From Gemmatimonadales bacterium (GTDB lineage Bacteria; Gemmatimonadota; Gemmatimonadetes; Gemmatimonadales; GWC2-71-9), in NCBI GenBank assembly GCA_035601235.1, contig DATNOR010000038.1, forward strand, positions 4,858 to 68,857: a stretch of DNA of 64,000 nucleotides, given 5' to 3'. The translations under genes and the position numbers were made by a program. The notes beneath the pieces are model-generated. The model ran no database searches, was not told where the DNA came from, and saw only the letters and a list, made by a program, of their open reading frames with translations. Position 1 is the first letter of the stretch. Every line of letters begins with the position of its first letter. Below are positions 47,385 to 64,000 of this stretch, piece by piece.

Positions 47385-47826
47385 CGCCGGAGTCGTCCGA
47401 CTGCTGCTGTTTCGGGTAGGCGCCCTCGTCTGTGCGGCCGAGGCGGAGCGGGTGCGTGAGATCCTGCCCCGGCTCGTGCCCACGCGGATTCCCGGGGCGC
47501 CGCCCGTGGTGGCGGGCCTGGTCAACGTGCGGGGGACGCTGGTCACGGTCGTCGAGGGATGGCGGGCGCTGCGCCAGCCCGAGCCGCCCGACGATGCAGG
47601 TTCCGGGACCACGGTGGTGCTCGAGGTGGGCCGCGGCAACAAGGTCCTCGGCTTCACGGTGGACGAGGTGGTGGACCTCCTCTCCGTGGCTGGGGAGGCG
47701 CTGGAACGCCGGCAGGCGCTGCCCGGCATCGATCCGATCCTGGTGCGGGCCGTCGGACGTCGCGCCGGTCAACTCTTCGTGGTCCTCGATACCGACGCGC
47801 TGCTCACCCCCATTCTGTCTTCCTAG
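47377..47826 (+). CDS. cheW: Chemotaxis coupling protein CheW
   Basis: Start chosen at ATG 47377, an 8-nt overlap with rluD. LLLFRVGALVCAAEAERVREIL...VAGLVNVRGTLVTVVE...VLGFTVDEVVDLL is a typical CheW fold pattern. Confidence 0.85.
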   Translation: MSDAGVVRLLLFRVGALVCAAEAERVREILPRLVPTRIPGAPPVVAGLVNVRGTLVTVVEGWRALRQPEPPDDAGSGTTVVLEVGRGNKVLGFTVDEVVDLLSVAGEALERRQALPGIDPILVRAVGRRAGQLFVVLDTDALLTPILSS

Positions 47827-47835
47827 GGAGGATGT

Positions 47836-48198
47836 GTGAGTCACACTGTCCTCGTCTGCGACGACGCCATCTTCATGCGGACGATGATCTCGGACATCCT
47901 GGCCCAGGCGGGATTCGAGATCGTGGGAGAAGCGGAGACGGGGTCCCAGGCGGTCGAGAAATACCGCCAGCTCAAGCCCGATCTCGTCACCATGGACATC
48001 GTGATGCCGGACATGGGCGGCATCGATGCGGTGCGCGAGATCGTCAAGCAGGATCCCGACGCCAAGATCCTCATGTGCAGCGCGATGGGCCAGCAGGCGC
48101 TCGTGGTCGAGGCGATTCAGGCGGGGGCGAAGGATTTCGTGGTGAAGCCGTTCCAGCCGTCGCGCGTCCTCGAGGCCGTGCAGCGGGTCCTCGGCTGA
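47836..48198 (+). CDS. cheY: Chemotaxis response regulator CheY
   Basis: 120 aa. GTG start with GGGAGGA upstream. Receiver motifs VLVCDDAIFMR, LVTMDIVMPDMGG (phospho-Asp), MCSAMG and DFVVKPF. Confidence 0.93.
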   Translation: MSHTVLVCDDAIFMRTMISDILAQAGFEIVGEAETGSQAVEKYRQLKPDLVTMDIVMPDMGGIDAVREIVKQDPDAKILMCSAMGQQALVVEAIQAGAKDFVVKPFQPSRVLEAVQRVLG

Positions 48199-48202
48199 CT
48201 CC

Positions 48203-50101: not shown

Positions 50102-50122
50102 GCCCACGCGAGGGGAGGCGGC

Positions 50123-50740
50123 ATGGAGGACGTGCGGGATCTGAAGGCGCTACAGATCGACGCCCTGCGGGAGGTGGCCAACATCGGAGCGGGGCACGCC
50201 GCCACGGCGTTATCCCAGCTCACGAACCGCCGCATCATGATCAGCGTGCCGCAGATCAACATCGCGCGGCTGGAGGAGGTGCCCGACCTGCTGGGCCACC
50301 CCCAGGACGTGGTCGCCGCCGTGCTCATGCACATGCTGGGGGACCTGACCGGGCGGACGCTGCTCCTGTTCCCCGAGTCGGTGGGGCGGCGGCTGTGCGA
50401 CATGCTGCTGCGCCGTCCGCTCGGCACGACGGTGGCGTTCGACGCGTTGGAGCAGTCGTGCCTCAAGGAGGCTGGCAACATTCTCTCGGGCGCCTACATG
50501 AACGCCCTGTCGGACTTCATGGGCATGTTGCTGCTGCCTTCGGTGCCGAGCCTCGTAGTGGACCTGTCGGCCGCGGTCCTGACCACCACCTACCTCAACT
50601 TCGGACACGAGCGCGACTTCGTGTTCTGCGTCGAGACGGAATTCGCGATTGATTCGCCCGAGGGGCTGCGGGGCCACTTCCTGCTGCTTCCCGATCTGGC
50701 GTCGCTCAAGGCCATTTTTGACGCCATCCGCCTGAGCTGA
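50123..50740 (+). CDS. cheC: CheY-P phosphatase CheC (CheC/CheX/FliY family)
   Basis: 205 aa. Duplicated signature: DALREVANIGAGHAATALSQL and SCLKEAGNILSGAYMNALSDF. Confidence 0.85.
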   Translation: MEDVRDLKALQIDALREVANIGAGHAATALSQLTNRRIMISVPQINIARLEEVPDLLGHPQDVVAAVLMHMLGDLTGRTLLLFPESVGRRLCDMLLRRPLGTTVAFDALEQSCLKEAGNILSGAYMNALSDFMGMLLLPSVPSLVVDLSAAVLTTTYLNFGHERDFVFCVETEFAIDSPEGLRGHFLLLPDLASLKAIFDAIRLS

Positions 50741-50743
50741 CCC

Positions 50744-53443
50744 GTGACGGCGCCGGCGCTCTCGGAACGCGACCTCGCCGTCCTCCGATCCTTCGCCCGC
50801 CGGATCGACCCTTCGGACGCGGGCGCGCACAACAACCTCGGCGTCCTGTATTACCAGAAGGGCCTGGTCGAGGACGCGATCGCCGAGTTCACCCGCGCGC
50901 TCGAGCTCGACCCGAAGATGCAGGTCGCGCAGCGCAACCTCGAGATCGCCTATCACGACACGGGCTACTACGACCAGCGCGTGGCCCAGCTGCGGGAGCG
51001 GCTGCGCAGCGCCCCCGACGACCGCGACGCGCGCTGGGAGCTGGGGCGCGCCTACGCGATCCTCGGCGCCCAGGAGGACGCCGTCGGGGAGTTCGAGCAG
51101 CTGCTGGCGCATCGCCCCGACGACGTGGCCGCCATCATCCAGCTCGGGCTCGCGGAAAAGAACCGGGGGCGGCCCGAAGCGGCGACGGAGTGGTTTCTGC
51201 GCGCCGTGGAGCTCGAGCCCGACTCGAGCGTCGTGCACTTCTATCTGGGGGAGATCTACTACAACCGGGGCTTGAACGCCGAGGCGCTCGGGGCGCTCGA
51301 GCGGGCGGTGGCCCTGAACCCCGACAACGCCAACGCCCACTACCTGATGGCCTTCGTCTTGGGCGACCTGGGTCGCCACCAGGACGCCCGGGCCGCCTCG
51401 AAGCGCGCGATCCAGCTCAACCCGCCGCTGGCCCGCGCCCAGACCAACCTCTCGCTCGAGCGCTACAACGCGGAGCGCAAGAGCCAGGAACGGCGCCAGC
51501 GGCTCGTACCCGAGCCGCAGGTGGTGGAAGGGAACGAGCTGGCGCACTACAACCTCGGGCTCGCCTTCCGGCAGAAGGGCTACTACAACGAGGCGCTGCG
51601 GGAGTATCGCCTGGCGCTGGAGCGGGGCGAGGACCGGCGGCTGACGCTGCAGGCGATGGCGGAGGTGCACCTGCTGAAGCACGACTTCGCCACGGCGCTC
51701 GAGCTGTACGACACGCTGCTGCGCGAGGTGCCCGACTCGCCCAAGCTGTGGAACGAGCGCGGAGTCGTGCTGCACCAGGCGGGCCGCACCGACGAAGCGC
51801 TGGCCTCCTACCGACAGGCGGTGGAGGTGGATGCCAAGTACGCGCTCGCCTGGAACAACCTCGGCGTGGTGCAGGCGCACAAGACCGCGGCCGACGCTGC
51901 GATCGAGTCGTTTCGCACGGCGCTGCGGTTGCAGGGGGCGTTCAGTGCCGCACGCTTGAACCTCGCCCTGCTGCTCTACCAGCTGCGCCGCTTCCAGCTG
52001 GCACTCGAGGCGTACCGCCAGGTGCTGTCGGGCGAGCCCGCCTCCGCCCCGGCCTGGAACGGCGTCGGGCTGGTGCTGGTGGAGCTGAAACGCTTTCCCG
52101 ACGCGCGCAACGCGTTCGTGCGCGCGGTGGAAGCGGACCCATCGCACGCGGGCGCGCATTACAACCTGAGCTTCACCCTGTCGAACCTCGGGGACTTCGA
52201 TGGCGCGCTCCGCGCCACCAAGCGCGCCCTGGAACTCGATCCCTACTACGTATCGCAGAAGTTCGCGCTCACGATCGACCTGCAGTACGAGAAGACCACG
52301 ATCGGGATCGCCCCGGAGATTTCGGCCGACGTGACCACCGAGACGATCGGCGAGGACTTCAGTTTCGACCAGCGGCTGCTGGACAACATCTTCCAGGAGC
52401 TCGAGCCCCCTGCCGCGCCGGAGCCGCCGGCCGGGAAGGCGGCCGACGACCCGCTGGCGCTGGCCCGCGACTACGTGAGCAAAGGGTTGATGGACGTCGC
52501 GGCGGCGGAGGCGGTGCGCGCCGTGCAGCGCGGCGCCAGCCGCGCCGACGCGGCCGTCCTGCTCGGCGACATCTTTGCGAAGCGGGGCCTGCACGGCGAG
52601 GCGCTGGAGCGCTACCGCGAGGCGCGCGCCCTCGAGGCCGAGCGCGTCGATGCGCGCCTGGGCGAGGTGAAGGCGTTGTTCGCGCTGGGCGGCCGCCGCG
52701 CCGAGGAGGCGCGCGCGCTGGCGGAGGAGCTGCTCGTGCTCGCCCCCGACCACGTGGACGCGCTCGTGGCGGCGGCGCGGGGACGCGCGGCGGCGGGCGA
52801 CGCGGCCGGGGCGCTCACGGCGCTGCAGCAGGCGCAAACGCGGGCGCCCGGGCGCGCCGACCTGCACAAGCTCCAAGGCGACGTGGCCATGAAGGTCGGC
52901 GACAAGCAGGGCGCGCTCGCCGCGTACCGCGCGGCGCTCGAGCTCGACCCGGGCTACGTGCAGGTGTGCGTCGACCTCGGCCGGCTACACGAAGAGAAAG
53001 AGGAGTGGAGCGCCGCCCAACAGGCGTACGAGCGGGCGCTCGACGCGCTGCCCACCTTCCACGAGGCGGCGCTCGCGCTGGCGGACCTGCTGCGCCGCTC
53101 CGGGCGCGCGCGCCAGGCGGTGGTGCGGCTCGCGGAAATGCTCGAGCAGGACCCCTACGACCTCCCGGCACTGTTGCTCCTGGGACGGGCGTTGCTCGAT
53201 GACAAGCGCGACCCCCAGGCCCTCGAAGCCTTCCGGCGGGCCCTCAAGTTCGACCCCGACCAAATGGAGGCGCTGTTCCAGCTGGGCGTCGTGCTCGCGC
53301 GGCTGCATCGCTACGCCGAGGCGGTGGAAGCGTGGGAGAAAGTGACACGCGTGGATCCCGGCGGTCCGTTCGCGCAGCGGGCGCGCGTGCACGCCCGCAC
53401 CGCGCTCGATCTGCAGCACATCTTCGACTCGGACGCCGCCTGA
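50744..53443 (+). CDS. 899-aa tetratricopeptide-repeat protein
   Basis: GTG start 3 nt after the cheC stop. More than 15 recognisable TPR units (e.g. AHNNLGVLYYQKGLVEDAIAEFTRALELDP, AWNNLGVVQAHK...). No signal peptide or TM helix seen. Confidence 0.85.
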   Translation: MTAPALSERDLAVLRSFARRIDPSDAGAHNNLGVLYYQKGLVEDAIAEFTRALELDPKMQVAQRNLEIAYHDTGYYDQRVAQLRERLRSAPDDRDARWELGRAYAILGAQEDAVGEFEQLLAHRPDDVAAIIQLGLAEKNRGRPEAATEWFLRAVELEPDSSVVHFYLGEIYYNRGLNAEALGALERAVALNPDNANAHYLMAFVLGDLGRHQDARAASKRAIQLNPPLARAQTNLSLERYNAERKSQERRQRLVPEPQVVEGNELAHYNLGLAFRQKGYYNEALREYRLALERGEDRRLTLQAMAEVHLLKHDFATALELYDTLLREVPDSPKLWNERGVVLHQAGRTDEALASYRQAVEVDAKYALAWNNLGVVQAHKTAADAAIESFRTALRLQGAFSAARLNLALLLYQLRRFQLALEAYRQVLSGEPASAPAWNGVGLVLVELKRFPDARNAFVRAVEADPSHAGAHYNLSFTLSNLGDFDGALRATKRALELDPYYVSQKFALTIDLQYEKTTIGIAPEISADVTTETIGEDFSFDQRLLDNIFQELEPPAAPEPPAGKAADDPLALARDYVSKGLMDVAAAEAVRAVQRGASRADAAVLLGDIFAKRGLHGEALERYREARALEAERVDARLGEVKALFALGGRRAEEARALAEELLVLAPDHVDALVAAARGRAAAGDAAGALTALQQAQTRAPGRADLHKLQGDVAMKVGDKQGALAAYRAALELDPGYVQVCVDLGRLHEEKEEWSAAQQAYERALDALPTFHEAALALADLLRRSGRARQAVVRLAEMLEQDPYDLPALLLLGRALLDDKRDPQALEAFRRALKFDPDQMEALFQLGVVLARLHRYAEAVEAWEKVTRVDPGGPFAQRARVHARTALDLQHIFDSDAA

Positions 53444-54594
53444 TGGCCATCGAGGGACCGCTCCGCGAGCTCGGCATCCACGACGTGTTCCAGCTGCTCG
53501 ATTTGAGCCGCAAGACCGGCGTGCTGCGCGTGACCTCGGAGCTGCGGCACAACGCGGGTACGGTGTCCTTCGAGGGCGGGACGATCATCTTCGCCGAGAT
53601 CCGCTCCAATCCGCACCCGCTCGGGGCGCTGCTCCTGCGCACCGGCAAGATCACCGACGCGGACCTGGAGCGCGCGCGCGACATGCAGGAGCGGCAGGGG
53701 GACAAGCGGCGGCTCGGCGAGATCCTCGTCTCGCTCGGCGCCATCACGCCGCGGGAGCTCGAGCGCCAGGTGCGCTTCCAGATCGAGGAAGTCGTGTTCG
53801 AAATGATGAGCTGGCGGGAGGGTTACTTCTCCTTCACCGAAGGCCCGCTCGACGACGCGCCGACGGACGGGACCGTTCGGATCCCCACGGAGGCGCTGCT
53901 GATGGAGGGCGCCCGCCGCATCGACGAGTGGTCGCGCATCGAGGGTCGGATCCCGCACCTGGGCGTCGTGCCGGCGCTCGCCCCGCCGCAGGAAGGGGAT
54001 TCCGGAGAGCTCGATCTGCTGCCGCCCGAGTGGGAGATGCTCGCGGCCATCGACGGCCAACGCGATGTACGCGCGATCGCCGCCGCACTGGGCCGCTCCG
54101 ACTTCGAGGTGGCGAAGACGCTGTTCGGACTCGAGAGCGCGGGCGTCATCGTGCTGGCCGACCCCGGCACGACCAAGCGCGAGCGCACCACGCTCGCCGC
54201 CGATCTGGCCCAGCTGGTGGCGCGCGCCGAAGACGCCCTGGCGCGGCGCGACCTGGAGGAGGCGCGTGGCGTGGCCGAGCAGGCCGCGGGCGTGCATCCG
54301 CACGATCCCGCCGTGCACCTGCTGCTCGGTCGCATTGCGCTCGCGGCCGGACGCGGTCCGGACGCGGTGGAAGAGCTGCGGCGCGCCCTGCGGCTCGATC
54401 CCCTGGGCGTCGCGGCGTACCGGCTGCTCGGCTACGCGCTCGTCGCGACCGGCCGCTTCGCCGAGGCCCTGGACCAGTGGGACCAGTGGGAGCGCCTGGC
54501 GCCGCGCTCGGAGGCGGAGCTGGCACGGCTCGACGAGGTGCGCCGTGCGCGCGGCGCCGCCCAGACGCTCGCCGGAGCGAGCACGCATGGCTGA
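53443..54594 (+). CDS. PATAN (DUF4388) domain protein with C-terminal TPR region
   Basis: Start ATG 53443 (TGATG junction). MAIEGPLRELGIHDVFQLLDLSRKTGVLRV...FEGGTIIFAE is the DUF4388/PATAN signature. It has a helical insert (LGEILVSLGAITPRELE) and C-terminal TPR-like helices. Paralogous to 58826..60442. Confidence 0.8.
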   Translation: MAIEGPLRELGIHDVFQLLDLSRKTGVLRVTSELRHNAGTVSFEGGTIIFAEIRSNPHPLGALLLRTGKITDADLERARDMQERQGDKRRLGEILVSLGAITPRELERQVRFQIEEVVFEMMSWREGYFSFTEGPLDDAPTDGTVRIPTEALLMEGARRIDEWSRIEGRIPHLGVVPALAPPQEGDSGELDLLPPEWEMLAAIDGQRDVRAIAAALGRSDFEVAKTLFGLESAGVIVLADPGTTKRERTTLAADLAQLVARAEDALARRDLEEARGVAEQAAGVHPHDPAVHLLLGRIALAAGRGPDAVEELRRALRLDPLGVAAYRLLGYALVATGRFAEALDQWDQWERLAPRSEAELARLDEVRRARGAAQTLAGASTHG

Positions 54595-55414
54595 CGACAT
54601 CAAGGCGCTCTCGGCCGAGCTGGCGCGGGACCCGGACAGCCTGGTATTCCTGCGGCTGGGCGAGCTGCTGCGTCACAAGGGGCAGGTCGACGCGGCCCAT
54701 CGCGTCGCCCTCACCGGTCTCGAGCGCCACCCGCATCTGGCGGACGCGCACGACCTGTACGCCCGCATCCTCGCCGACAAGCATGACTACGAGCGCGCCT
54801 TCGACGAGTGGGACATGGCGCTGCGGATCGCCCCCGACCACGTGGGGGCGCTCAAGGGTCTCGCCTTCCTCTATTTCAAGGTGGGCGACGTGCAGCAGGC
54901 CGCGGCCCATCTGGAGGCGGCGCAGCGCGTCGCTCCGGATGATCCGGGGATCGCGCAAGCGCTCGCGCTGGCGCACGGCGGCGAGGCCGGTCCGGGAGCC
55001 GCGTCGCCGGCGCCGGAGCCGATGGCGCCCGCGCCGGCGGCCCAGCCGCTCGAGGAGTCCCGCGTATTCGCGGGACTGGAAGGGGCGGAGGAAGGGCTGC
55101 TGCTGCTCGATCCGTCGGGCCAGGTGCTGGGGGGCGCCCTCAAGGATCCCTCGGGGCGGGACGTGACGGACGCCGTGGCCGCCTACCTGGCGGGTGTGTC
55201 GCAGGAGGCGGGGCGCACCGCCAAGCTGCTCGGTCTGGGAAGCTGGACCGGACTCGCCGCGGAAGGCCGGCACGGCCACGCCCACCTCACGCCGCCTACG
55301 GGGTCGGCGCTGCTGCTCGTGGTGCGCGAGCGCGCGGTGCCGATGGGGCGCCTCGCGATCATCGCCCAGCGCGCCGCCGTCGCGGCGCGCCGCTGGCTGG
55401 AAGCGCAGGCGTGA
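54587..55414 (+). CDS. TPR + roadblock/LC7 (MglB-like) fusion protein
   Basis: Start ATG 54587, an 8-nt overlap. N-terminal TPR (about 125 aa), a Pro/Ala linker, and a C-terminal roadblock-like segment GLLLLDPSGQVLGGALKDPSG...VAAYLAGVSQEAGRTAKLLGLGSW...ALLLVVRERAVPMGRL. Confidence 0.75.
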   Translation: MADDIKALSAELARDPDSLVFLRLGELLRHKGQVDAAHRVALTGLERHPHLADAHDLYARILADKHDYERAFDEWDMALRIAPDHVGALKGLAFLYFKVGDVQQAAAHLEAAQRVAPDDPGIAQALALAHGGEAGPGAASPAPEPMAPAPAAQPLEESRVFAGLEGAEEGLLLLDPSGQVLGGALKDPSGRDVTDAVAAYLAGVSQEAGRTAKLLGLGSWTGLAAEGRHGHAHLTPPTGSALLLVVRERAVPMGRLAIIAQRAAVAARRWLEAQA

Positions 55415-55770
55415 CCACGGCCCCCGCGGGATACGGCCGCGTGCTGGATCTGGTGACGCGCGTCCGCGGCGTGCGCGGCGCCATGCTCGTCGCGGGCGAC
55501 GACGGGCTCGTGGTCGCCGAGCAGTTGATGGAGGGGATCAAGGGGCCGGCCGTGGCGGCGCTCGCGGCGAGTCTCGCAAGCCGGCTGCGGCGCGCGCTCG
55601 AGGCAGCGGGCGTGGGCGCGGGTCAGTTCTGGCATCTCCAGGCGGAGCAGGGCGCCTTGCTGGTCGTCACCGCACCCTCGGGGGTGCTGGTGGTCGCCGT
55701 GGCGGAGCCCGACGTGAATGTGGGCCTGGTGCGGCTCGAGCTGCTGCGCGCGGCGGAGGCGGTGGGATGA
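55411..55770 (+). CDS. Roadblock/LC7 domain protein (MglB-like)
   Basis: 119 aa from GTG 55411 (GTGA overlap). LVTRVRGVRGAMLVAGDDGLVVAEQL...AALAASLASRL...LLVVTAPSGVLVVAVAEPDVNVGLVRLEL is a typical roadblock pattern. Confidence 0.8.
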   Translation: MTTAPAGYGRVLDLVTRVRGVRGAMLVAGDDGLVVAEQLMEGIKGPAVAALAASLASRLRRALEAAGVGAGQFWHLQAEQGALLVVTAPSGVLVVAVAEPDVNVGLVRLELLRAAEAVG

Positions 55771-56237
55771 CGACGCGCGCGGTCGAGCCGTGGGTTTTCG
55801 AGCCGCTCGTCAAGTTCGTGAAAGAGGCGGGGGCGCGCCTGGTCCTGCTGATGACCCCGGCCGGACAGGTGCTCGCGCAACACGGGTTCTCGCGCGCGGT
55901 GGACGTGATGGCGGCCGCGGCGCTGGGCGCCGCCATCATGGCCTCGACCGATGAGATCGCCCGGCAGCTGCGCCAGCCACCGTTCGCCGGACTGAATCAT
56001 CAGGGGGAGCGACACGGCATCTTCCTGGCGGCGGTCCCGACCGGGCGCGGCCGGCTGGTGGCGCTCGTCGTGTACGACCTCGATGCTTCGTCGCTCGGGC
56101 TGGTGCAGTTATTCTTCGAGCAGCTCGCCGCCGATCTGCAGGCGGCGAGCCCGAAGGACAGCGTGCCCAAGCAGGTGCTCGCGGCGGACTTCGAGCGCGA
56201 GCTGAGCGACAGCTTGAACACGCTGTTCGGGAGATAG
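55767..56237 (+). CDS. Roadblock/LC7-like protein, third paralog
   Basis: 156 aa from ATG 55767 (ATGA overlap). ARLVLLMTPAGQVLAQHGFSRAVDVMAAAALGAAIMAS...HGIFLAAVPTGRGRLVALVVYD, plus a ~40-aa C-terminal tail. Confidence 0.7.
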   Translation: MTTRAVEPWVFEPLVKFVKEAGARLVLLMTPAGQVLAQHGFSRAVDVMAAAALGAAIMASTDEIARQLRQPPFAGLNHQGERHGIFLAAVPTGRGRLVALVVYDLDASSLGLVQLFFEQLAADLQAASPKDSVPKQVLAADFERELSDSLNTLFGR

Positions 56238-56241
56238 CCTC

Positions 56242-56841
56242 GTGTCCCTGGTCAACTTCACGACGCGTGAGATCACCTGCAAGATCGTCTACTACGGGCC
56301 CGGCCGCTCGGGGAAGACGACCAACCTGCATTACATCTACGGCCGGGTGCCGGACTCGCGCCGCGGCCGCCTGGTGTCGCTCGCCACCCAGACCGACCGC
56401 ACCCTGTTCTTCGATTTCCTGCCGATCGACCTGGGGCAGATCTCCGGCTTTTCGACCCGGTTCCAGCTCTACACCGTGCCGGGCCAGGTGTACTACAACG
56501 CGACCCGCCGGCTCGTGCTCCAGGGCGCGGACGGCGTCGTGTTCGTGGGCGACAGCCAGGCGCGCCAGCTCGACGAGAACCTGGAAAGCCTGCAGAACCT
56601 GCAGAGCAACCTGCTCGAGCACGGCGTCGACATCCGCACGATCCCGCTGGTGCTGCAATACAACAAACAGGACTTGCCGCGCGAGCTGATCCTCTCGGCC
56701 GCCGACCTGGACGACGCCCTCAACTTCCGCGGCGTGCCGAGCTTCAGCGCGGACGCGCTGCACGGCAAGGGAGTATTCGAGACGCTCAAGGGCATTTCCG
56801 AGCTGGTGCTGAAAAAGCTCGCGGCGGGGACGGCGGCGTGA
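56242..56841 (+). CDS. mglA: Ras-like small GTPase MglA
   Basis: 199 aa, aligning along its full length by eye with Myxococcus MglA. KIVYYGPGRSGKTTNL (P-loop), TDRTLFFDFLP (intrinsic Arg), the MglA-specific TVPGQ in place of DxxGQ, and QYNKQD (NKxD). Confidence 0.92.
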   Translation: MSLVNFTTREITCKIVYYGPGRSGKTTNLHYIYGRVPDSRRGRLVSLATQTDRTLFFDFLPIDLGQISGFSTRFQLYTVPGQVYYNATRRLVLQGADGVVFVGDSQARQLDENLESLQNLQSNLLEHGVDIRTIPLVLQYNKQDLPRELILSAADLDDALNFRGVPSFSADALHGKGVFETLKGISELVLKKLAAGTAA

Positions 56842-58826
56842 CGAGCGCCCTCAATCCCAAGTACTCGTTCGACAGCTTCGTGGTGGGCGCCGCCAACCGG
56901 CTCGCCGTCACCGCGGGGCGGACGGTCGCGGAGAACCCGGGCGCGGCCTACAACCCGCTGTTCATCTACAGCGGATCGGGCCTGGGCAAGACCCACCTCC
57001 TGATGGCGGTGGGTCAGGCGGCGAAGAAAGCGGCCCCCGCGCTCAACATCGAGTACTTCACCCTGGACGAGTACGTCGAGGCGTTCCACGCCGCCATCGC
57101 CGCGGGGCAGGGCGACGCGTTCCGCCGCCGCTTTCAGAACGTGGACGTGCTGCTCGTGGACGACGTGCAGTTCCTCACGAACCGCAAGGAGATGCAGTCC
57201 GAGCTGTTGCGCCTGACGGAGGCGCTGCAGGTGGGGGGGCATCAGATCGTGCTCACGAGCGACCGTCCACCGCCCGAGATCGCCGACCTGGACGAGCGCC
57301 TGATCTCGCGGCTCTCGGGCGGGCTGGTGGTCGACATCGGGGCGCCGGATTACGAGACCCGGGTCGCCATCCTGCGCCGCAAGGCCGACGAGCGCGGGGC
57401 CAAGTTCGAGCCGGGCGTGCTCGAGACGGTCGCGGACGCGGAGTCCGGCAACGTGCGGGAGCTGATGGGGGCGCTCAACCGGCTGGTCGCGTTTCAAGCG
57501 GTGAACGACCGCTCCATCAACGCGGAGACGGCGAAACAGCTGCTCGGCATCGGAAGCGAGGGCGCGCCCAGCGATGGTGGCAAGGCCGCGGGGAGGGAAG
57601 GAGCGGCGCGCGAAAGCGCGGGGCCCGGGGCCCGGGGCCCGAGAGACGAGTTCGGCGACTTCCTGGCCGACGTGACGGTCACCGTGGGGAAGGCGGTCGA
57701 GGCGTGGCGCGCGCGGGTCGGGGAGGCGATGCTGCGCTGGGAGGGGGAAGGCTATCGCACGCGGCGGCTCGAGGCGCTACTCGAACGCGATACGCCCGCC
57801 GCCGTGGACCAGGTGATCGCGGCGTTCACGCAGGACGTGGAGCGCCTGAAGGAGCTCGAGGCTGAGGTCGCGGAGCTCGACCCCCAGGCCGCCGGGCAGA
57901 GTGTGTTTCGCGATCCGGAGCGGCTGGGCGAGGCGGAGGAGGTGGCGGCCAAGGTGCGCGATGGCGCCGCGCCGCCCCCGGGGCCGTCGGCCGCGTTTCC
58001 GCTCGCGGCCTACGCGGTGGGGCCGTCCAACGAAGTGGCGGTGGGCGCCGCGCGCGCGGTGCTGAAGCAGCCCGGCAAGAAGTACAATCCGCTCGTGCTG
58101 GTCGGCAAGAGCGGTCTCGGCAAGACGCATCTGCTCAACGCCATCGGCCTCGAGCTCGCCCGCGGCAAGCGGGCGGTGGTGGCGTGTCTCTCGACGCAGG
58201 CGTTCGTGGATGAGCTGATCGCGGCGATCGATGGCGACCGCGTCGACTGGTGGCGGGCGCGCTACCGCCGCGCGACCGCGCTGCTGCTCGACGACATCCA
58301 TCTCATTGCCGGCAAGGAGCGCACGCAGGAGGAGCTGTTCAACCTGTTCAACCTGCTGCAGGACAAGGAGCGCCAGCTCGTCTTCACCGCTCCGGCACAG
58401 CCGCATACGCTCCCCGGTCTGGAGGAGCGCATCGCGTCGCGCCTGGCCGGAGGCCTGGTCGCGGAGATCAAGGAGCCCGACCGCGAGGTGAAGCGGGCCG
58501 TGCTGGAGCGCCTGCTGGGCCAGCAGAACTCCAGCCCGGATCCGGCGCTCGTCGACTACCTCGCCGACCGTCCGGCGGAGTCGGTGCGCGGCCTGGTGGG
58601 CGAGCTGCAGCGGGTCGTGGGCGCGGCGGCCGCCCAGGATGGTCCGCTCACGGCGGGGCTCGCGCGCGAGGTGCTCGAGGGCCAGGCGCCGCGCGACAGC
58701 CGCCGCAGCGCCGGCTTCCGTACGTCGGGGATCGTGGTGTCGAGCCTGGGCGGCATCAAGAGCCGTGAGAAAATGGTGTGGGACTGGAGCGACGTCGCCG
58801 ACCGTGTAATCGAGGAGTTCCGCTGA
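56838..58826 (+). CDS. Tandem DnaA-type AAA+ ATPase protein lacking DnaA domains I and IV
   Basis: 662 aa from GTG 56838 (GTGA overlap with mglA). Module 1 (aa 7-236): NPKYSFDSFVVGAANRLA, AYNPLFIYSGSGLGKTHL, LLVDDVQF, IVLTSDRPP, ERLISRLSGGLVV and GNVRELMGALNRL. Module 2 (aa 386-615): AYAVGPSNEVA, KYNPLVLVGKSGLGKTHL, LLLDDIHL, LVFTAPAQP, ERIASRLAGGLVA and ESVRGLVGELQRV. No helix-turn-helix DnaA-box-binding domain is present. Confidence 0.85.
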   Translation: MTSALNPKYSFDSFVVGAANRLAVTAGRTVAENPGAAYNPLFIYSGSGLGKTHLLMAVGQAAKKAAPALNIEYFTLDEYVEAFHAAIAAGQGDAFRRRFQNVDVLLVDDVQFLTNRKEMQSELLRLTEALQVGGHQIVLTSDRPPPEIADLDERLISRLSGGLVVDIGAPDYETRVAILRRKADERGAKFEPGVLETVADAESGNVRELMGALNRLVAFQAVNDRSINAETAKQLLGIGSEGAPSDGGKAAGREGAARESAGPGARGPRDEFGDFLADVTVTVGKAVEAWRARVGEAMLRWEGEGYRTRRLEALLERDTPAAVDQVIAAFTQDVERLKELEAEVAELDPQAAGQSVFRDPERLGEAEEVAAKVRDGAAPPPGPSAAFPLAAYAVGPSNEVAVGAARAVLKQPGKKYNPLVLVGKSGLGKTHLLNAIGLELARGKRAVVACLSTQAFVDELIAAIDGDRVDWWRARYRRATALLLDDIHLIAGKERTQEELFNLFNLLQDKERQLVFTAPAQPHTLPGLEERIASRLAGGLVAEIKEPDREVKRAVLERLLGQQNSSPDPALVDYLADRPAESVRGLVGELQRVVGAAAAQDGPLTAGLAREVLEGQAPRDSRRSAGFRTSGIVVSSLGGIKSREKMVWDWSDVADRVIEEFR

Positions 58827-60442
58827 TGGCCATCAAGGGATCGCTGAAGGAAGCGTCGCTCCCCGACGTGCTCCAGCTGCTCGCGCTGGGGCAGAAGACG
58901 GGGTGTCTCTCCATCGCCGACCGCTCGAACTTCGGCTACATCTACTTCGACAAGGGTCGCATCTGCTACGCGTCGATCGTCAACCGGCGCGATCGCCTGG
59001 GCGACATCCTGGTCAAGCACTCCAAAATCACCCAGGCGCAGCTCGACGTCGCCGTGCACCGCCAGACCAGGGAGCACGGCAAGAAGCTCGGCGAGGTCCT
59101 GGTCGGCATGGGGGTCATCACCCAGGCCGATCTCGAGCGCTACATGCGGGTGCAGATCGAGGAATCGGTCTACTATCTGTTCACCTGGACGCAGGGGACG
59201 TTCAACTTCGAGTCCGACGTCCGCCCCGAGCGCCAGGACTTTCGGGTCTCGATCAACCCCGAGTCGTTGCTGCTCGAGGGCGCGCGTCGCGTGGACGAGT
59301 GGAGCCTGATCGAGAAGAAGATCCCCGGGTTCGATTTGATCTTCGTCGTGGACGGGGACCGGCTCGCCATCAGCGAGGCGAAGCTGACCGACACCCAGCA
59401 GCGCATCCTGCCGCTGCTCGACGGGTCGCGCGACGTGAACCACGTGATCGAAGACTCCGGGCTGGGAGAGTTCGAGATCGGCAAAGCGCTGTACGGGCTG
59501 ATCACCGCCGGGTTCGTGCACCGCGCCGGCCGCACGGCGTCGGCGGCCGACGCGCAGATCACCGATGCGCGCGTGGAAGAGCATCGCAATCTGGGGATCG
59601 CGTTCTACAAGACGGGCATGCTGGACGAGGCGACGCGTGAGTTCCGCCGCGTCGCCGAGCTGCGCTCAGGGGAAGCCAACGCCCACTTCTACATCGGCCT
59701 CGTCGCCCTGAAGCAGGCGCGCTGGCGCGAGGCGATGGAGGCGTTGCGCCTGGCGGCGGAGAAGGGCGGGAACCGTCCCGCGGTGTTCCACAACCTGGGC
59801 TTTGCCTACGAGCAGCTGGGCCGGCTCGACGACGCCGAGGCGGCCTACGGCGAGGCGGCCACGCGTGCCCGGACCGATGCGAAGGTGTACCTGGGCTGGG
59901 GGGTCGTGGCGCTGAAGCGGGGCGACTACGCCAGTGCCGCCGGCCGTCTGGATCGGGCGCGGGAGCTGTTCGGCAAGGTGCCGCCGCCGGCCTGGTTCTG
60001 GGCGCGCACGCTCAGCGCCGCGGGGGCGGGCGCATTCGAGCTCGCGCAGGAGCTGGCCGAGGAGGGGGCGGAGGCCTTCCCGTCGCACGCCGCGCTCCAG
60101 AACAACCTGGCGGTGCTCAAGGAGCTCGCGGGGGACCTCGCGGGGGCGGAGGACGTCGTGCGCGCGGCGCGCAAGAACGAGCCCTCGCTCCCCCAGCTGT
60201 CCAAGAACCTCGGCGACCTCACCTACCGCGCGTCGCGCTACGACGAGGCCTGGGAGGCGTACCGGCGCGCCGTGGAGCTGGCCCCCGACCTGGGCGACGA
60301 CGTGTACTTCAAGCTCGGCAACATCGCGTACAAGCGGAACGAGCGCGAGCTCGCGACGCAGCTGTGGCGCCAGGCGCTCGAGATCAACCCGAAGCACGAG
60401 CTCGTCAAGGCCAATCTGGACACGTTGAGCGCGTTGTCGTGA
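58826..60442 (+). CDS. PATAN (DUF4388) domain protein with C-terminal TPR region, second paralog
   Basis: Start ATG 58826 (TGATG junction). MAIKGSLKEASLPDVLQLLALGQKTGCLSI...FDKGRICYAS, helical insert LGEVLVGMGVITQADLE, EGARRVDEWSLIEKKIP (compare EGARRIDEWSRIEGRIP in the first paralog), then about 7 TPR units. Confidence 0.8.
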   Translation: MAIKGSLKEASLPDVLQLLALGQKTGCLSIADRSNFGYIYFDKGRICYASIVNRRDRLGDILVKHSKITQAQLDVAVHRQTREHGKKLGEVLVGMGVITQADLERYMRVQIEESVYYLFTWTQGTFNFESDVRPERQDFRVSINPESLLLEGARRVDEWSLIEKKIPGFDLIFVVDGDRLAISEAKLTDTQQRILPLLDGSRDVNHVIEDSGLGEFEIGKALYGLITAGFVHRAGRTASAADAQITDARVEEHRNLGIAFYKTGMLDEATREFRRVAELRSGEANAHFYIGLVALKQARWREAMEALRLAAEKGGNRPAVFHNLGFAYEQLGRLDDAEAAYGEAATRARTDAKVYLGWGVVALKRGDYASAAGRLDRARELFGKVPPPAWFWARTLSAAGAGAFELAQELAEEGAEAFPSHAALQNNLAVLKELAGDLAGAEDVVRAARKNEPSLPQLSKNLGDLTYRASRYDEAWEAYRRAVELAPDLGDDVYFKLGNIAYKRNERELATQLWRQALEINPKHELVKANLDTLSALS

Positions 60443-61260
60443 CGGCGGGGGGGGGGCCGGACGAGCGGGCGTTTCGAGCGCTCACCCAGAAGATCACGCG
60501 GGCGCGAGGCCTCGCGTGCGACAGCTACAAGGACCGCTGCCTGCGGCGCCGCATCGCGGTACGGATGCGGGCGCGCGGCGTCCACACGTTCGACGATTAC
60601 AGTCGCCTGCTCGATCAAGACCAGCGCGAGTACGACCTGCTGGTCGACGCCCTCACCATCAACGTCACCAAGTTCTTCCGCAACGTGGAAACGTGGCGCG
60701 CGCTTGCGCCGTGGCTCGACAAGCTCTGGATCGCGCGCCGGGGCGAGGTGCGGGTCTGGTCGGCCGGATGCGCGTCGGGAGAGGAGCCGTACACCGTAGC
60801 GGTGGCGCTGGCCGAGGCGGCGCGCCGCGCCGGCCAGGAGCAGCTGCTCGGCCGCGCGCGCGTGGATGCCACCGACATCGACCGCGCGAGCCTCGAGCGC
60901 ACGCGGGCGGCGCAGTACCCCGAGGCGGCGTTCAGCGAGACCCCGCCGGAGCTGGTGGCGCGCTATTTCACGGCGCCACCGCGGCAGCCGGCACCCGAGC
61001 TGCAGCGCATCGTGCATGTCGCCAAGCACGACCTTACGAGCCAGCCGCCGCCCGCGCCGCCCTACGATCTGGTCGTCTGCCGCAACGTGGTGATTTACTT
61101 CGACCGGGCCATGCAGGAGCAGCTGTTCACGCTGTTCGCCGACGCGCTCGCGCCGGGGGGCGTGCTGCTGCTTGGCAAGGTCGAGACCTTGTTCGGTGCG
61201 GCGCGCGAGCGCCTGGTGCTCGAAGAGCCCCGCGAGCGGATTTATCGGCTGGCCCCATGA
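60439..61260 (+). CDS. cheR: Chemotaxis protein methyltransferase CheR
   Basis: Start GTG 60439 (GTGA overlap). LTINVTKFFRN, SAGCASGEEPYTVA (SAM-binding) and VCRNVVIYFD. Confidence 0.9.
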   Translation: MTAGGGPDERAFRALTQKITRARGLACDSYKDRCLRRRIAVRMRARGVHTFDDYSRLLDQDQREYDLLVDALTINVTKFFRNVETWRALAPWLDKLWIARRGEVRVWSAGCASGEEPYTVAVALAEAARRAGQEQLLGRARVDATDIDRASLERTRAAQYPEAAFSETPPELVARYFTAPPRQPAPELQRIVHVAKHDLTSQPPPAPPYDLVVCRNVVIYFDRAMQEQLFTLFADALAPGGVLLLGKVETLFGAARERLVLEEPRERIYRLAP

Positions 61261-61757
61261 TGGGAGCCGCGGCGCCGCAGGAGACGATCGTGAAGGTGGC
61301 CGACTGGGCCGCCGGCCGGGCGGATGCGGTGCTCGTGACGCTGGGCCTCGGGTCGTGCGTCGCGATCATGCTGCACGATCCCCGCGCCTGCGCCGGCGCG
61401 ATGGCCCACATCCTGCTGCCTTCGAGGAGCCTCGCGCGCGACATCACGAATCTCGCCAAGTTTCCCGAGACTGCCGTGCCGCTGCTGGTGGAGCGTCTCG
61501 CGACGCTGGGGGCCGACCCCCGATACCTCGTCGCCAAGCTCGCGGGCGGCGCCAGCATGTTCGCGCAGCTCATGACGCCGGGTTCGGTGCAGATGGGGGA
61601 GCGCAACGTCGCGGCCGCCCGCGCCGTGCTGCGCCACGTGGGGATCCCCGTGGCGGCCGAAGCGGTGGGCGGGGACGCCGGCCGCTCGGTGCGGTTCTAC
61701 GTGGCAGATGGCCGGGTCGAGATCCGGTCGGTCGGCGTCGATGCCATCGTCATCTGA
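61257..61757 (+). CDS. cheD: Chemoreceptor glutamine deamidase CheD
   Basis: Start ATG 61257 (ATGA overlap). [14 protein letters not shown] (catalytic Cys), [18 protein letters not shown] and GERNV. Confidence 0.88.
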
Positions 61758-62856
61758 CGGCCGCCCCAGCGTCCTGGTCGTGGACGACAGCGCGCTGATG
61801 CGGCGCGTGTTGAGCGACGTGCTGGGCGCGGGCGACGGCATCGCGGGGGCGGGGGAGTTTCGGGTCGTGGGCACCGCGCGCGACGGCTTCGATGCGGTGC
61901 GCAAGGTGCATCAGTTCGACCCCGACGTCGTGACGATGGACCTCGAGATGCCGGAACTCGACGGGCTGGGCGCCATCGGCTACATCATGTCGGAGTCGCC
62001 CCGCCCGATCGTGGTGGTGAGCGCGCACGCGGGGCCCGGCACCGGCACGGCGATCCGCGCCCTGGAGCTCGGCGCCGTGGAGATCGTCGCCAAGCCGGAC
62101 GATGCGAACCGTGCCGCGCTCGAGCGCATGGCCCCCGAGCTGCGCGGCGCCGTGCGCCGGGCCCTCGCCGCCGACGTGTCGCACGTCTCGGTCCTGGCGC
62201 GGCCGCCCGCGCCGGTGCGGCGCGCGCCCGAGCAGGCGCTCCGGGCCCGGGCCCGCCTCGCGGTCGCGCTCGCGGCATCCACCGGCGGGCCGCGCGCCCT
62301 CGCGGAAGTGATCCCGCGCCTCCCCACCGGCCGGACGGCCGCGGTGCTGGTCGTGCAGCACATGCCGCCCCGGTTCACCCGCTCGCTCGCCGAGCGGCTC
62401 GACTCGTTGTCCGCACTGCGCGTGGTGGAGGCGGACGACGGGGCGCCCGTGGTCGCCGACACGGCGTACGTGGCCCCGGGCGATTATCATATGCGAGTGG
62501 TCGCCGCCGCCGCAGGGCCCGCCATCGCGCTCGACCAGGAGCCGCCCGTGTGGGGCGTGCGCCCGGCCGCCGACCCGCTGTTTCGCTCGGTGGCGCAGGT
62601 GTTCGGCGCGAGGAGCATCGGCGTGGTGCTCACGGGCATGGGCCGCGATGGCGCGGAGGGCGTGCGCGCGATCCGCGCCGCCGGGGGCGGAGGGATCGCC
62701 CAGGACCGCGACTCGGCCGTCATCGCCGGCATGCCCACCGCGGCGGTGCAGATCGGGGGCGTGGATGCGGTCTTCCCGCTGGGCGAGATCGCGGGGCGGA
62801 TCGACACGGAGCTGGTCACGAGGGGGGCCGGCATGCGGGACACGGGGCGCGTGTGA
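61741..62856 (+). CDS. cheB: Chemotaxis response regulator protein-glutamate methylesterase CheB
   Basis: Receiver domain ([25 protein letters not shown]) plus methylesterase domain ([26 protein letters not shown]). Start ATG 61741 is preferred; 61708 is possible. Confidence 0.92.
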
Positions 62857-62860
62857 TGGC

Positions 62861-63325
62861 ATGCGTCAGGGTAGGGGCGCAGCATGCTGCGCCCCTCCAT
62901 CGACCGTGAGCCGCGGCTATCTGCTGGTGCGCGTGGACGGCCGGTCGTACGGCCTGCCCCTCGCCCGGGTGCTCGAGGTGGGCGACCTGGCGGAGGTGCT
63001 GGACGTGCCACGCGCCTTGCCGGCGATGCGTGGCCTCACCCCCCTGCGGGGACGCCTGGTGCCGGTGGTGCATCTGGGCGCGTTGATGCGCGACGGGACA
63101 CCGCCCGCCGAGCGGGGGCGCACGGCGGTGCTGGTGGAGATCGGGGCGGGCGAGGGCGCGCGCCGGGTGGCCTTCGAGGTGGAGGACGCCGACGACGTGG
63201 TGCGCGAAGCCGCGCTGCCGGTGCCGCGCGGCGAATCGCTGCCGTGGGCCTCGGGAGTGGCGCGCCGCCGCGGCGCGCTGGTCCCGATCCTCGATCTGGA
63301 CGCGCTGGGAGACCGCATCGGATGA
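62861..63325 (+). CDS. CheW-like domain protein (divergent)
   Basis: YLLVRVDGRSYGLPLARVLEV...MRGLTPLRGRLVPVVHLGAL...VAFEVEDADDVV...ALVPILDLDAL follows the CheW pattern. Start uncertain: ATG 62861 or GTG 62906. Confidence 0.75.
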   Translation: MRQGRGAACCAPPSTVSRGYLLVRVDGRSYGLPLARVLEVGDLAEVLDVPRALPAMRGLTPLRGRLVPVVHLGALMRDGTPPAERGRTAVLVEIGAGEGARRVAFEVEDADDVVREAALPVPRGESLPWASGVARRRGALVPILDLDALGDRIG

Positions 63326-63798
63326 CGGCAGGCGACGACGTACAGCTCGTGACGTTCAAGGTGGCCGGCTACGACTTCGCCTTCAACATCTTCCAGGTGG
63401 AGCGCATCCTCCGCTACGAGGCGCCGGCGCCGTTGCCCAAGGCCCCCGACTTTCTCGAAGGCGTGCTCCAGTACCAGGGAGCCGCCATCCCCCTGGTGGA
63501 CCTGCGGAAGCGGCTCGGCGTTCCGGCGCCGCACCGCGAGGAGACCCGCAGCGTGATTCTCGAGTGGGAGGGCGGCAAACTCGGCGTCGTGGTTGACGCC
63601 GTGACCGAAGTGCGGCAGGTCGCGGCCGAGCGGATCACGGCTCCGCCCGGGATCGTGAAGGGGTTGGCGGCGGAGTACATCACCGGTCTCGTGGTGACCG
63701 ACGGCCGCACGATCATCGTGCTCAATACGGCCCGGCTGCTGTCGTCGCAGGAGAAGGTCGCCCTGGACACGGCGGTGCAGCAGCAGGTGAAGGTCTGA
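63322..63798 (+). CDS. cheW: Chemotaxis coupling protein CheW
   Basis: Start ATG 63322 (ATGA overlap). LVTFKVAGYDFAFNIFQVERIL...FLEGVLQYQGAAIPLVDLRKRLG...LGVVVDAVTEV...IIVLNTARLL. Confidence 0.85.
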   Translation: MTAGDDVQLVTFKVAGYDFAFNIFQVERILRYEAPAPLPKAPDFLEGVLQYQGAAIPLVDLRKRLGVPAPHREETRSVILEWEGGKLGVVVDAVTEVRQVAAERITAPPGIVKGLAAEYITGLVVTDGRTIIVLNTARLLSSQEKVALDTAVQQQVKV

Positions 63799-64000
63799 TG
63801 GCCGATTCCCCGCTTCCCGCGCTCCGCGCCGAGTACGAGCAGATCGCGCGCCGCCTCGACGGGGTGACGCACGCGTCCGAGCGCGAGGTCGTGAAGCGCG
63901 AAATCATCGCCTACTTCAAGCGGGTCGATGCGTTCATCGGCGAGCTATCGGCGCTCAAGGAGGACATCCGCAAGCTGGTCGATCGGTTCAAGCAGGTCAC
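63798..64000 (+). CDS. Hypothetical protein, N-terminal fragment (runs off the right edge)
   Basis: My own translation from ATG 63798 (TGATG junction with cheW): MADSPLPALRAEYEQIARRLDGVTHASEREVVKREIIAYFKRVDAFIGELSALKEDIRKLVDRFKQV. Helical or coiled-coil character, G/C-rich third positions, and no stop up to the window end. Confidence 0.45.
   Translation, partial: MADSPLPALRAEYEQIARRLDGVTHASEREVVKREIIAYFKRVDAFIGELSALKEDIRKLVDRFKQV

Follow-up and report, generated by a model that had tools for sequence, protein, structure and literature searches.

A tandem ATPase made of two DnaA domain III modules, encoded in a chemosensory and MglA operon of Gemmatimonadota

We analyzed a 64,000-nucleotide stretch of the Gemmatimonadales contig DATNOR010000038.1 (hereafter called the window), in which a forward-strand gene between mglA and a PATAN-TPR gene of a chemosensory operon encodes a protein made of two DnaA domain III ATPase modules (Table 1). 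A reading of the letters of the window made without database searches (from here on, the sequence-only reading) had proposed an open reading frame (ORF) at 56838-58826 encoding a DnaA-derived AAA+ protein without N-terminal or DNA-binding domains. The ORF is present, all of the motifs quoted in that reading are found in its translation, and its product (from here on, the tandem ATPase) is 100% identical to a Joint Genome Institute (JGI) metagenome protein (P0001). As that reading had predicted, Bac_DnaA (PF00308) matches the tandem ATPase in two stretches in a Pfam search (E 2.4e-98), and neither Bac_DnaA_C (PF08299) nor DnaA_N was detected even at E ≤ 1. The NCBIfam DnaA model aligns with the protein two times, in both cases by its domain III portion only. 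The two modules are 35% identical to one another across 228 amino acids with one gap, and, because each scores higher with the DnaA model (285 bits for module 1 and 215 bits for module 2) than with the Hda model TIGR03420 (92 and 98 bits, respectively), we conclude that both are derived from DnaA and not from Hda. The summed score of the protein (495.8 bits) passes the cutoff of the DnaA model TIGR00362 (343.9 bits), and for this reason the tandem ATPase is labeled in databases as "DnaA/Hda family protein" or, wrongly and in many JGI records, as "chromosomal replication initiator protein DnaA," a label that can confound the prediction of origins and surveys of gene content in Gemmatimonadota, which are abundant in soils.

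The predicted structure agrees with the profile matches. An AlphaFold2 (AF2) model with a mean predicted local distance difference test score (pLDDT) of 82 superposes on Bacillus subtilis DnaA domain III (8bv3) with a template modeling (TM) score of 0.95 and a root-mean-square deviation (rmsd) of 1.4 Å at 45% identity. In the model, the initiator-type two-helix insert after β2 is seen in both module 1 (E71-75/H76-88/H92-100/E104-108) and module 2 (E448-452/H453-465/H469-477/E481-485), which places the tandem ATPase, at the level of the predicted fold only, in the AAA+ initiator clade (DnaA/Orc/Cdc6/DnaC/IstB). Walker A is preceded by 44-48 residues in all of 246 orthologs. In a distance tree, the module 1 sequences form one clade and the module 2 sequences another, a topology that fits an internal duplication and two separate acquisitions equally.

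Conservation of catalytic and DNA-contact residues was counted in 31 representatives of clusters formed at 50% identity, with B. subtilis DnaA numbering as the reference; residues K157, I190, D214/215, K222, R264, and R313 of the B. subtilis protein map correctly in the alignment, and the anatomy of the family was also drawn from a 56-sequence alignment. The Walker A lysine and the first aspartate of Walker B are each found in 31/31 representatives in module 1 and in 29/31 in module 2, and the sensor II arginine is found in 29/31 and 28/31, respectively. The arginine finger is present in 26/31 representatives in module 2 versus 15/31 in module 1, and that of module 2 is kept even in P0184 and P0199, both of which are without a module 2 P-loop. 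The sequence-only reading had described one conserved and one degenerate site. The DnaA resemblance of the two modules in the window protein agrees with this description, but, family-wide, both P-loops are kept, and the asymmetry lies instead in the arginine finger. The near-invariant P-loops and the module 2 finger therefore suggest that constraint acts on ATP binding by both modules and on a trans-acting arginine of module 2. No clear pattern of co-variation was seen between the catalytic residues of module 1 and those of module 2.

We also considered the residues through which DnaA contacts single-stranded DNA (ssDNA), namely the H and B motifs (I190 and K222 in B. subtilis DnaA; V211 and R245 in Escherichia coli DnaA). 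The position of I190, which is H84 in module 1 of the window protein, is His (nine), Arg (eight), or a gap (seven) in module 1 of the representatives and is never Ile, Val, or Leu, and the basic residue of the B motif (B. subtilis K222, E. coli R245) is variable in both modules throughout the family. Family-wide constraint does not extend to the DNA-handling residues of DnaA. This bears on whether the tandem ATPase could form a DnaA-like filament on ssDNA or RNA, for example on DNA taken up via type IV pili. Such a nucleic-acid ATPase would agree with the intact DnaA domain III fold, with a K-E-R version of the B motif retained in module 2 of the window protein, and with the DnaA domain III fusions found in a pilus cluster (see below), but neither module conserves the ssDNA-contact positions across the family and the operon is without competence or DNA-processing genes, and we consider this explanation very unlikely.

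Outside the two modules, the sequence-only reading had seen a helical and low-complexity linker of ~150 amino acids and a tail. The helical part of this description stands, but disorder is limited to a spacer (residues ~237-268), which varies in the 31-representative alignment and for which divergence precluded an estimate of the nonsynonymous rate (dN), and the stretch from ~269 to 385 is a conserved all-α domain specific to the family. The conserved residues of the linker domain are D270-E271-F272..F275, W290, G305, L311, L337, D359-P360, A366, and P383, within the consensus DEFGxFLSEV...W...RWxxEGxRTxRLExLL...FRDPD, and, when modeled alone by AF2, the domain reaches a pLDDT of 88 and a predicted TM score (pTM) of 0.70. 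It matched no family in Pfam or NCBIfam and no fold in the Protein Data Bank (best E 4.7), and a linker-only profile search of a protein database returned short metagenomic fragments only. The 47-residue segment that follows module 2 also matched no family. It ends in a conserved motif of 20 residues, which reads S-R-E644-K645-M-V-W648-D-W650-S-D-V-A-D-R656-V-I-E659-E660-F-R-COOH in the window protein and has the consensus S-R-E-K-[MV]-V-W-x-W-P-D-V-x-D-R-[VL]-I-E-E-[FWL]-R, with a helix predicted at residues 653-661. Across 309 full-length orthologs, the final 20 residues keep strict register with the free C terminus (Glu at position -19, Lys at -18, and Trp at -13 in 298 sequences each, Arg at -7 in 285, and Glu at -4 in 286). 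Because one contains a conserved domain and the other a conserved C-terminal motif, the linker and the tail are not filler. Strict register with the C terminus would be the behavior of a C-terminal docking peptide. The EEVD sequence of Hsp70 and Hsp90 is a C-terminal ligand of TPR clamps, and, by likeness to EEVD-TPR recognition, we propose that the acidic C terminus of the tandem ATPase may serve as a TPR ligand.

The protein is widely distributed among relatives of the window organism. More than 120 clusters contain full-length proteins that are 84-100% identical to the tandem ATPase, searching 1.84 billion cluster representatives exhaustively yielded dozens of proteins of 640-700 amino acids that align end to end at 34-56% identity, and a linker-specific probe (built on an 11-sequence linker alignment) confirmed the family in 305 genomes among the GTDB species representatives. 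The loci that we examined were the best 80 of these 305, and all are from close relatives, either Gemmatimonadales or Gemmatimonadota metagenome-assembled genomes; because of this, the taxonomy of the distant members is known from organism names and ileS/rluD synteny only. The names attached to family members are Gemmatimonadales or Gemmatimonadota in every case. Pairwise comparison among 68 orthologous genes gave a ratio of nonsynonymous to synonymous substitution rates (dN/dS) that is lowest in module 1 (0.049), is 0.063 in the tail and 0.065 in the linker domain, and is highest in module 2 (0.109), which points to strong purifying selection on all structured parts of the protein. These low values, the single clade formed by each module, and the 305 genomes argue for a functional and ancient protein. 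That the gene is an artefact, a decaying duplicate, or part of a mobile or defense element (such as an IstB-like helper or a STAND-like nucleoside triphosphatase with TPR) is suggested by weak IstB_IS21 and nSTAND Pfam matches and by the adjacent TPR proteins. However, the nSTAND matches are under the cutoffs, PADLOC returned trivial P-loop and TPR matches only and no defense family, no transposase is nearby, and the gene is vertically inherited at a fixed chromosomal position under strong purifying selection. We regard this explanation as barely credible and as effectively refuted by the conserved full-length orthologs, the loci, and the dN/dS values; an assembly artefact, a frameshift, or a pseudogene as the source of the tandem arrangement is excluded by the full-length orthologs in 305 species genomes and in hundreds of metagenome clusters (including the >120 above), together with dN/dS.

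As shown in Table 1, the tandem ATPase gene lies within a run of same-strand genes in the order cheW, cheY, cheA, cheC, TPR, PATAN-TPR, TPR, Roadblock, Roadblock, mglA, tandem ATPase, 2xPATAN-TPR, cheR, cheD, cheB, and cheW. The two junctions of the gene are as the sequence-only reading had described them: the GTG start codon at 56838 overlaps the TGA stop codon of mglA (GTGA), and the TGA stop codon (58824-58826) shares its last nucleotide with the ATG of the downstream PATAN-TPR gene, which begins at 58826 (TGATG). The upstream gene is, by its full-length match to Myxococcus xanthus MglA, a genuine mglA. The two overlapping Roadblock/LC7 genes that precede it recall the Myxococcus MglB/MglC pair, and the second is too divergent for Pfam in several orthologs; Roadblock genes are kept in 69/80 loci, with absences at contig ends.

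Table 1. Features of the tandem ATPase and of its operon in the window
Feature	Position	Strand	Evidence or remark
cheW	47320-47826	+	Pfam
cheY	47836-48198	+	Pfam
cheA	48203-50101	+	Pfam
cheC	50123-50740	+	Pfam
TPR protein	50744-53443	+	Pfam
PATAN-TPR protein	53440-54594	+	Pfam
TPR protein	ORF 54065-55414, putative start near 54595	+	Pfam
Two Roadblock/LC7 (MglB-type) genes	55411-55770, 55767-56237	+	Pfam Robl_LC7
mglA (Ras-like GTPase)	56242-56841	+	E 1.3e-73 to M. xanthus MglA 5ymx, full length
Tandem DnaA-domain-III ATPase gene	56838-58826	+	GTG start, TGA stop, 662 amino acids
Module 1, DnaA domain III AAA+ (residues 1-236)	56838-57545	+	45% identity to B. subtilis DnaA domain III; Walker A K51, Walker B D108/D109, box VII R154, Arg finger R158, sensor II R207
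Disordered spacer, poorly conserved (residues 237-268)	57546-57641	+	pLDDT <50 at 239-270
Family-specific all-α linker domain (residues 269-385)	57642-57992	+	Alignment, AF2
Module 2, divergent DnaA domain III (residues 386-615)	57993-58682	+	35% identity to B. subtilis DnaA domain III; Walker A K429, Walker B D485/D486, box VII R531, Arg finger R535, sensor II R584
Disordered Arg/Ser-rich segment (residues 616-641)	58683-58760	+	pLDDT <50 at 616-647
C-terminal motif, putative docking (residues 642-662)	58761-58823	+	Register with C terminus, 309 orthologs
2xPATAN(DUF4388)-TPR protein	58826-60442	+	Pfam; translationally coupled to tandem ATPase
cheR	ORF 60364-61260, likely start ~60439	+	Pfam
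cheD	61257-61757	+	Pfam
cheB	61708-62856	+	Pfam
cheW-like	62884-63798	+	Pfam; operon runs beyond window end

The gene order is identical in 80/80 GTDB loci, with absences at contig ends only, and is unchanged in orthologs of just 39-41% identity and in a set of loci at 35-40% identity, which bears out the proposal of the sequence-only reading that a DnaA-like ATPase was recruited into a GTPase and chemosensory operon. In relatives, the order of the che genes is conserved from upstream through the last cheW, which is followed by a TPR gene, Peptidase_MA_2, a 63-amino-acid ORF, another TPR gene, and then rsmH-ftsL-ftsI. Altogether, an island of ~19 kb and ~20 genes comprises a Che pathway, MglA, two Roadblock proteins, three PATAN domains, four or five TPR proteins, and Peptidase_MA_2; it is seen at 47320-64000 of the window (running on past its end), at 672-19787 of L081, and at 550-20891 of L083 and always lies between rluD and the rsmH-ftsL-ftsI division cluster. 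The Peptidase_MA_2 gene, which elsewhere comes after the last TPR gene of the island, has gone in seven loci of Gemmatimonadales/Gemmatimonadaceae (L038, L041, L053, L069, L070, L077, and L078), in which the flanking TPR and 63-amino-acid genes stay. CheR, CheB, and CheD require a receptor substrate; no gene for a methyl-accepting chemotaxis protein (MCP) is found in the island. Rates of evolution are very uneven within the operon, and the tandem ATPase is among its faster-evolving genes: across loci L001-L080, CheY is 91-99%, MglA 82-98%, and the tandem ATPase 57-96% identical, and, across the distant and reduced loci described below, MglA is 77-84%, the PATAN-TPR protein 41-72%, and the tandem ATPase 35-64% identical.

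Reduced loci reveal which neighbor is invariant. L086 is without cheA, cheW, cheR, cheD, and cheB and keeps REC, CheC, TPR, and PATAN genes, both Roadblock genes, mglA, the tandem ATPase gene, the PATAN-TPR gene, and Peptidase_MA_2. L087 (596-5776) consists of rluD, a Roadblock gene, the tandem ATPase gene, the PATAN-TPR gene, and Peptidase_MA_2, and L085 (6892-11560) consists of the same genes without Roadblock. L085 and L087, whose ileS is ~53% identical to that of the window, have neither che genes nor mglA at the locus and have lost Walker A of module 2; the Roadblock gene of L087 thus stands without an adjacent GTPase gene. The 2xPATAN-TPR gene, by contrast with mglA and Roadblock, is directly downstream of the tandem ATPase gene in each locus that reaches far enough, including L085 and L087, usually with an overlap of 1 nucleotide, and is its only invariant neighbor. 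Coupling to mglA, as claimed in the sequence-only reading, therefore holds as overlap and common linkage but does not define the family, and, among the companions which that reading had listed (mglA, Roadblock, and DUF4388 genes), DUF4388, in the form of PATAN-TPR, always co-occurs. These loci also speak to the idea that the tandem ATPase is an AAA+ remodeler or assembly chaperone of a chemosensory array or TPR scaffold, driven by hydrolysis and not acting as a binary switch. Two AAA+ modules per chain are typical of type II AAA+ remodelers, and the operon is rich in TPR scaffold proteins and encodes two or three CheW proteins with no MCP. Nevertheless, the gene is also kept at loci devoid of CheA, CheW, CheR, and CheB, several lineages can do without arginine fingers, and both modules are of the initiator clade with the two-helix insert after β2, a clade that forms open spirals without pore-loop translocation (matches to p97-type structures have an rmsd of ~28 Å); we find this explanation quite improbable.

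Variants of the architecture connect DnaA domain III with signaling components. In P0224 (L088 8001-10217), module 1 is followed by the family linker (E 2e-16) and by a module 2 that has lost its P-loop, and the tail is replaced by a REC domain; the neighbors of P0224 are Hpt-REC-Hpt-REC genes and a hybrid PAS histidine kinase. Five longer proteins (P0200, P0203, P0211, P0216, and P0221) also carry the linker and, in most cases, the tail motif, with a P-loop in module 1 only. Proteins with MshEN fused to DnaA domain III (P0202 and neighbors) are encoded between pilD and pilB-pilT-pilC-pilS. We note that L089 2359-13973 (GCA_030620115.1, JAUXFG010000024.1) has four consecutive MshEN genes in a type IV pilus cluster, three of them fused to DnaA domain III, one of these three encoding a 1990-amino-acid protein with two modules, and that, in P0234 (1110 amino acids) and P0253 (876 amino acids), long TPR arrays are joined to a single C-terminal DnaA domain III. 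Because the family linker is lacking, the TPR and MshEN fusions appear to have arisen independently. The variants indicate that non-replicative DnaA domain III recurs with phosphorelay, TPR, and type IV pilus components. A further protein, P0193 (673 amino acids, from an ENA contig of 2.6 kb), contains two DnaA domain III modules followed by a genuine domain IV (Bac_DnaA_C, E 4e-24). It is not related to the linker family and may represent a replication initiator whose AAA+ domain was duplicated.

The gene does not sit at a replication origin. GC skew is uniformly positive along the 64-kb window with no switch, the DnaA-box consensus with one mismatch allowed occurs once versus 1.6 times expected by chance, and the gene is located mid-contig in contigs of 0.7-2.5 Mb. 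The window contains no dnaN, canonical dnaA, MCP, or pilus genes, and its remainder is housekeeping; a canonical dnaA presumably lies elsewhere in the same genomes. Because domains I and IV are missing, the context is not that of an origin, and the ssDNA-contact residues are unconserved, we conclude that the tandem ATPase is most likely not a replication initiator. A regulator of initiation is a different matter, as Hda, which is DnaA domain III alone, is a known DnaA regulator. An Hda-like tandem ATPase would use its DnaA-like AAA+ faces to co-assemble with DnaA and would cap or inactivate DnaA-ATP filaments, thereby placing replication initiation or the cell cycle under chemosensory or polarity control. 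The identity of module 1 to DnaA domain III (Table 1), the box VII and sensor II retained in the window protein, the Hda-style arginine finger of module 2 in most representatives, and the division and cell-wall cluster adjoining the island are all in line with such a role. Against it, the Hda β-clamp motif QL[SD]LF occurs in 0/246 orthologs, the scores of both modules with the Hda model are far below its cutoff of 194.8 bits, and the interface residues of module 1 (arginine finger and box VII) have gone in half of the orthologs. Further, the low identity of the tandem ATPase across loci relative to that of MglA would be surprising in a partner of DnaA, which evolves slowly, and the invariant linkage is to PATAN-TPR and not to replication genes. 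Overall, we view an Hda-like function as unlikely.

The conserved gene order, the PATAN-TPR pair that persists without che genes and mglA, and the REC, TPR, and MshEN fusions lead us to a reading in terms of signaling and polarity, in which the tandem ATPase most likely has an adaptor role and is not a replication protein. More specifically, it could be a non-replicative DnaA descendant that acts as an ATP-gated adaptor or assembly switch within a PATAN/TPR-MglA module for the control of polarity and motility, a proposal that we hold with as much doubt as confidence. We propose that the core of this module is the tandem ATPase with the downstream 2xPATAN-TPR protein, wired in most lineages to the MglA/MglB switch and a Che-type phosphorelay. 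First, both modules would bind ATP. Second, the arginine finger of module 2 would complete the ATP site of module 1, within a chain or between chains. It would follow from these two steps that conformation or oligomeric state is set by the nucleotide state, and, depending on that state, the linker domain and the acidic C-terminal peptide would engage the TPR/PATAN partners, leading to an MglA output. The architecture and its conservation, the loss of the DNA-binding parts, the gene linkage, and the fusion variants are demonstrated by the data; the switch behavior, the direction of the finger from module 2 to module 1, the tail-TPR docking, and an output through type IV pili are what we infer. 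A more elaborate version, which we put forward tentatively and think somewhat doubtful, is that the tandem ATPase is an ATP-driven second nucleotide switch beside MglA that forms, with the PATAN-TPR protein, a pole-marking or recruitment unit in the place of the RomR/RomX of Myxococcus. An arginine finger reaching from module 2 to module 1 of one chain would set the assembly state of the tandem ATPase, and this state would determine where MglA and the machinery of motility act. Polarity might also be coupled to the cell cycle if some cross-talk with DnaA has been retained.

Several observations weigh against the proposed adaptor and switch. Both arginine fingers have gone in four representatives, so stimulated hydrolysis cannot be universal, and the packing between domains is unreliable in the full-length AF2 model (pTM 0.47). 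Docking of the tail to TPR is proposed by analogy only. The MshEN and TPR fusions without linker show only that DnaA domain III can be recruited to such contexts. The rluD and rsmH-ftsL-ftsI flanks of the island also fit a role in the cell cycle. Neither the window nor the examined Gemmatimonadota loci contain pilus or gliding genes, and, because of this, the output machinery of the adaptor is deduced from other phyla. Finally, no cultured carrier of the gene was identified among the cluster records.

Taken together, a DnaA AAA+ core that was duplicated, lost its DNA-binding parts, gained two new appendages, and became fixed over a long evolutionary time in a signaling operon is a new use of a familiar fold. 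To our knowledge, the DnaA AAA+ domain has so far been described solely in replication initiation and in proteins that regulate it directly (Hda and helicase loaders). A literature search for links between DnaA-like proteins and MglA, PATAN, or Gemmatimonadota found nothing relevant, and no publication or curated family describes the tandem ATPase, in agreement with the failure of the sequence-only reading to match it to a characterized protein. The initiator fold, it seems, can be exapted for signaling, and the tandem ATPase would add an unrecognized component to small-GTPase polarity systems and a candidate partner for PATAN-domain proteins. If the version with a second nucleotide switch is correct, this would be the first exaptation of the replication-initiator AAA+ fold for cytoplasmic signal transduction.

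The tandem ATPase can be compared with several known AAA+ systems. Like DnaA, both modules are of the initiator clade with a Walker A GxxGxGKTH, a Walker B hhhhDD, box VII, and sensor II. Unlike DnaA, the tandem ATPase has no domains I, II, or IV, has a doubled domain III, adds a helical domain and a C-terminal motif, is encoded in a signaling operon and not at the origin or beside dnaN, and does not conserve ssDNA-contact residues; of five defining features of DnaA, one (the AAA+ domain III) is present and four are absent. With Hda/HdaA it shares DnaA domain III without DNA-binding domains and a conserved arginine finger (here in module 2), but it has two modules, no clamp motif, and another genomic context, and neither of the two Hda features that were tested is found. 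The type II AAA+ proteins p97/Cdc48, NSF, and ClpB also have two AAA+ modules per polypeptide, but these are of the classic clade, whereas the tandem ATPase has no N-domain and no ring or pore features, and its modules are set apart by a 150-residue insert; Foldseek comparison with type II tandem AAA+ proteins gave rmsd values of 25-31 Å at 13-16% identity.

The closest likeness of the operon is to the M. xanthus polarity module (Frz, MglA, MglB/MglC, RomR-RomX, and SgmX), with which it shares a close MglA ortholog, two Roadblock proteins, TPR proteins, and a Che pathway, and, like an MglA/MglB module, it encodes an MglA-family GTPase and Roadblock proteins together. It differs from the Myxococcus module in that no RomR or RomX was recognized in the Gemmatimonadota operon, all genes are in one operon, and the PATAN-TPR proteins and the tandem ATPase have no counterpart in Myxococcus. 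The tandem ATPase may interact with MglA/MglB, as suggested by gene overlap and by co-occurrence, the latter broken in L085 and L087. We know of no AAA+ partner described for PATAN proteins. PATAN genes are known neighbors of mglA and mglB (PMC4316618), binding of PATAN regulators to the type IV pilus motor has been reported (10.1101/2021.06.11.447907), and the TPR protein SgmX is reported to link MglA to the activation of type IV pili (PMC7668184), in line with a module that probably acts on type IV pili. Like the cyanobacterial PATAN regulators PatA and PixG/PixE/TaxP1, the invariant partner of the tandem ATPase bears PATAN (DUF4388) domains, two in number, but the Gemmatimonadota protein carries TPR repeats in place of their receiver domain.

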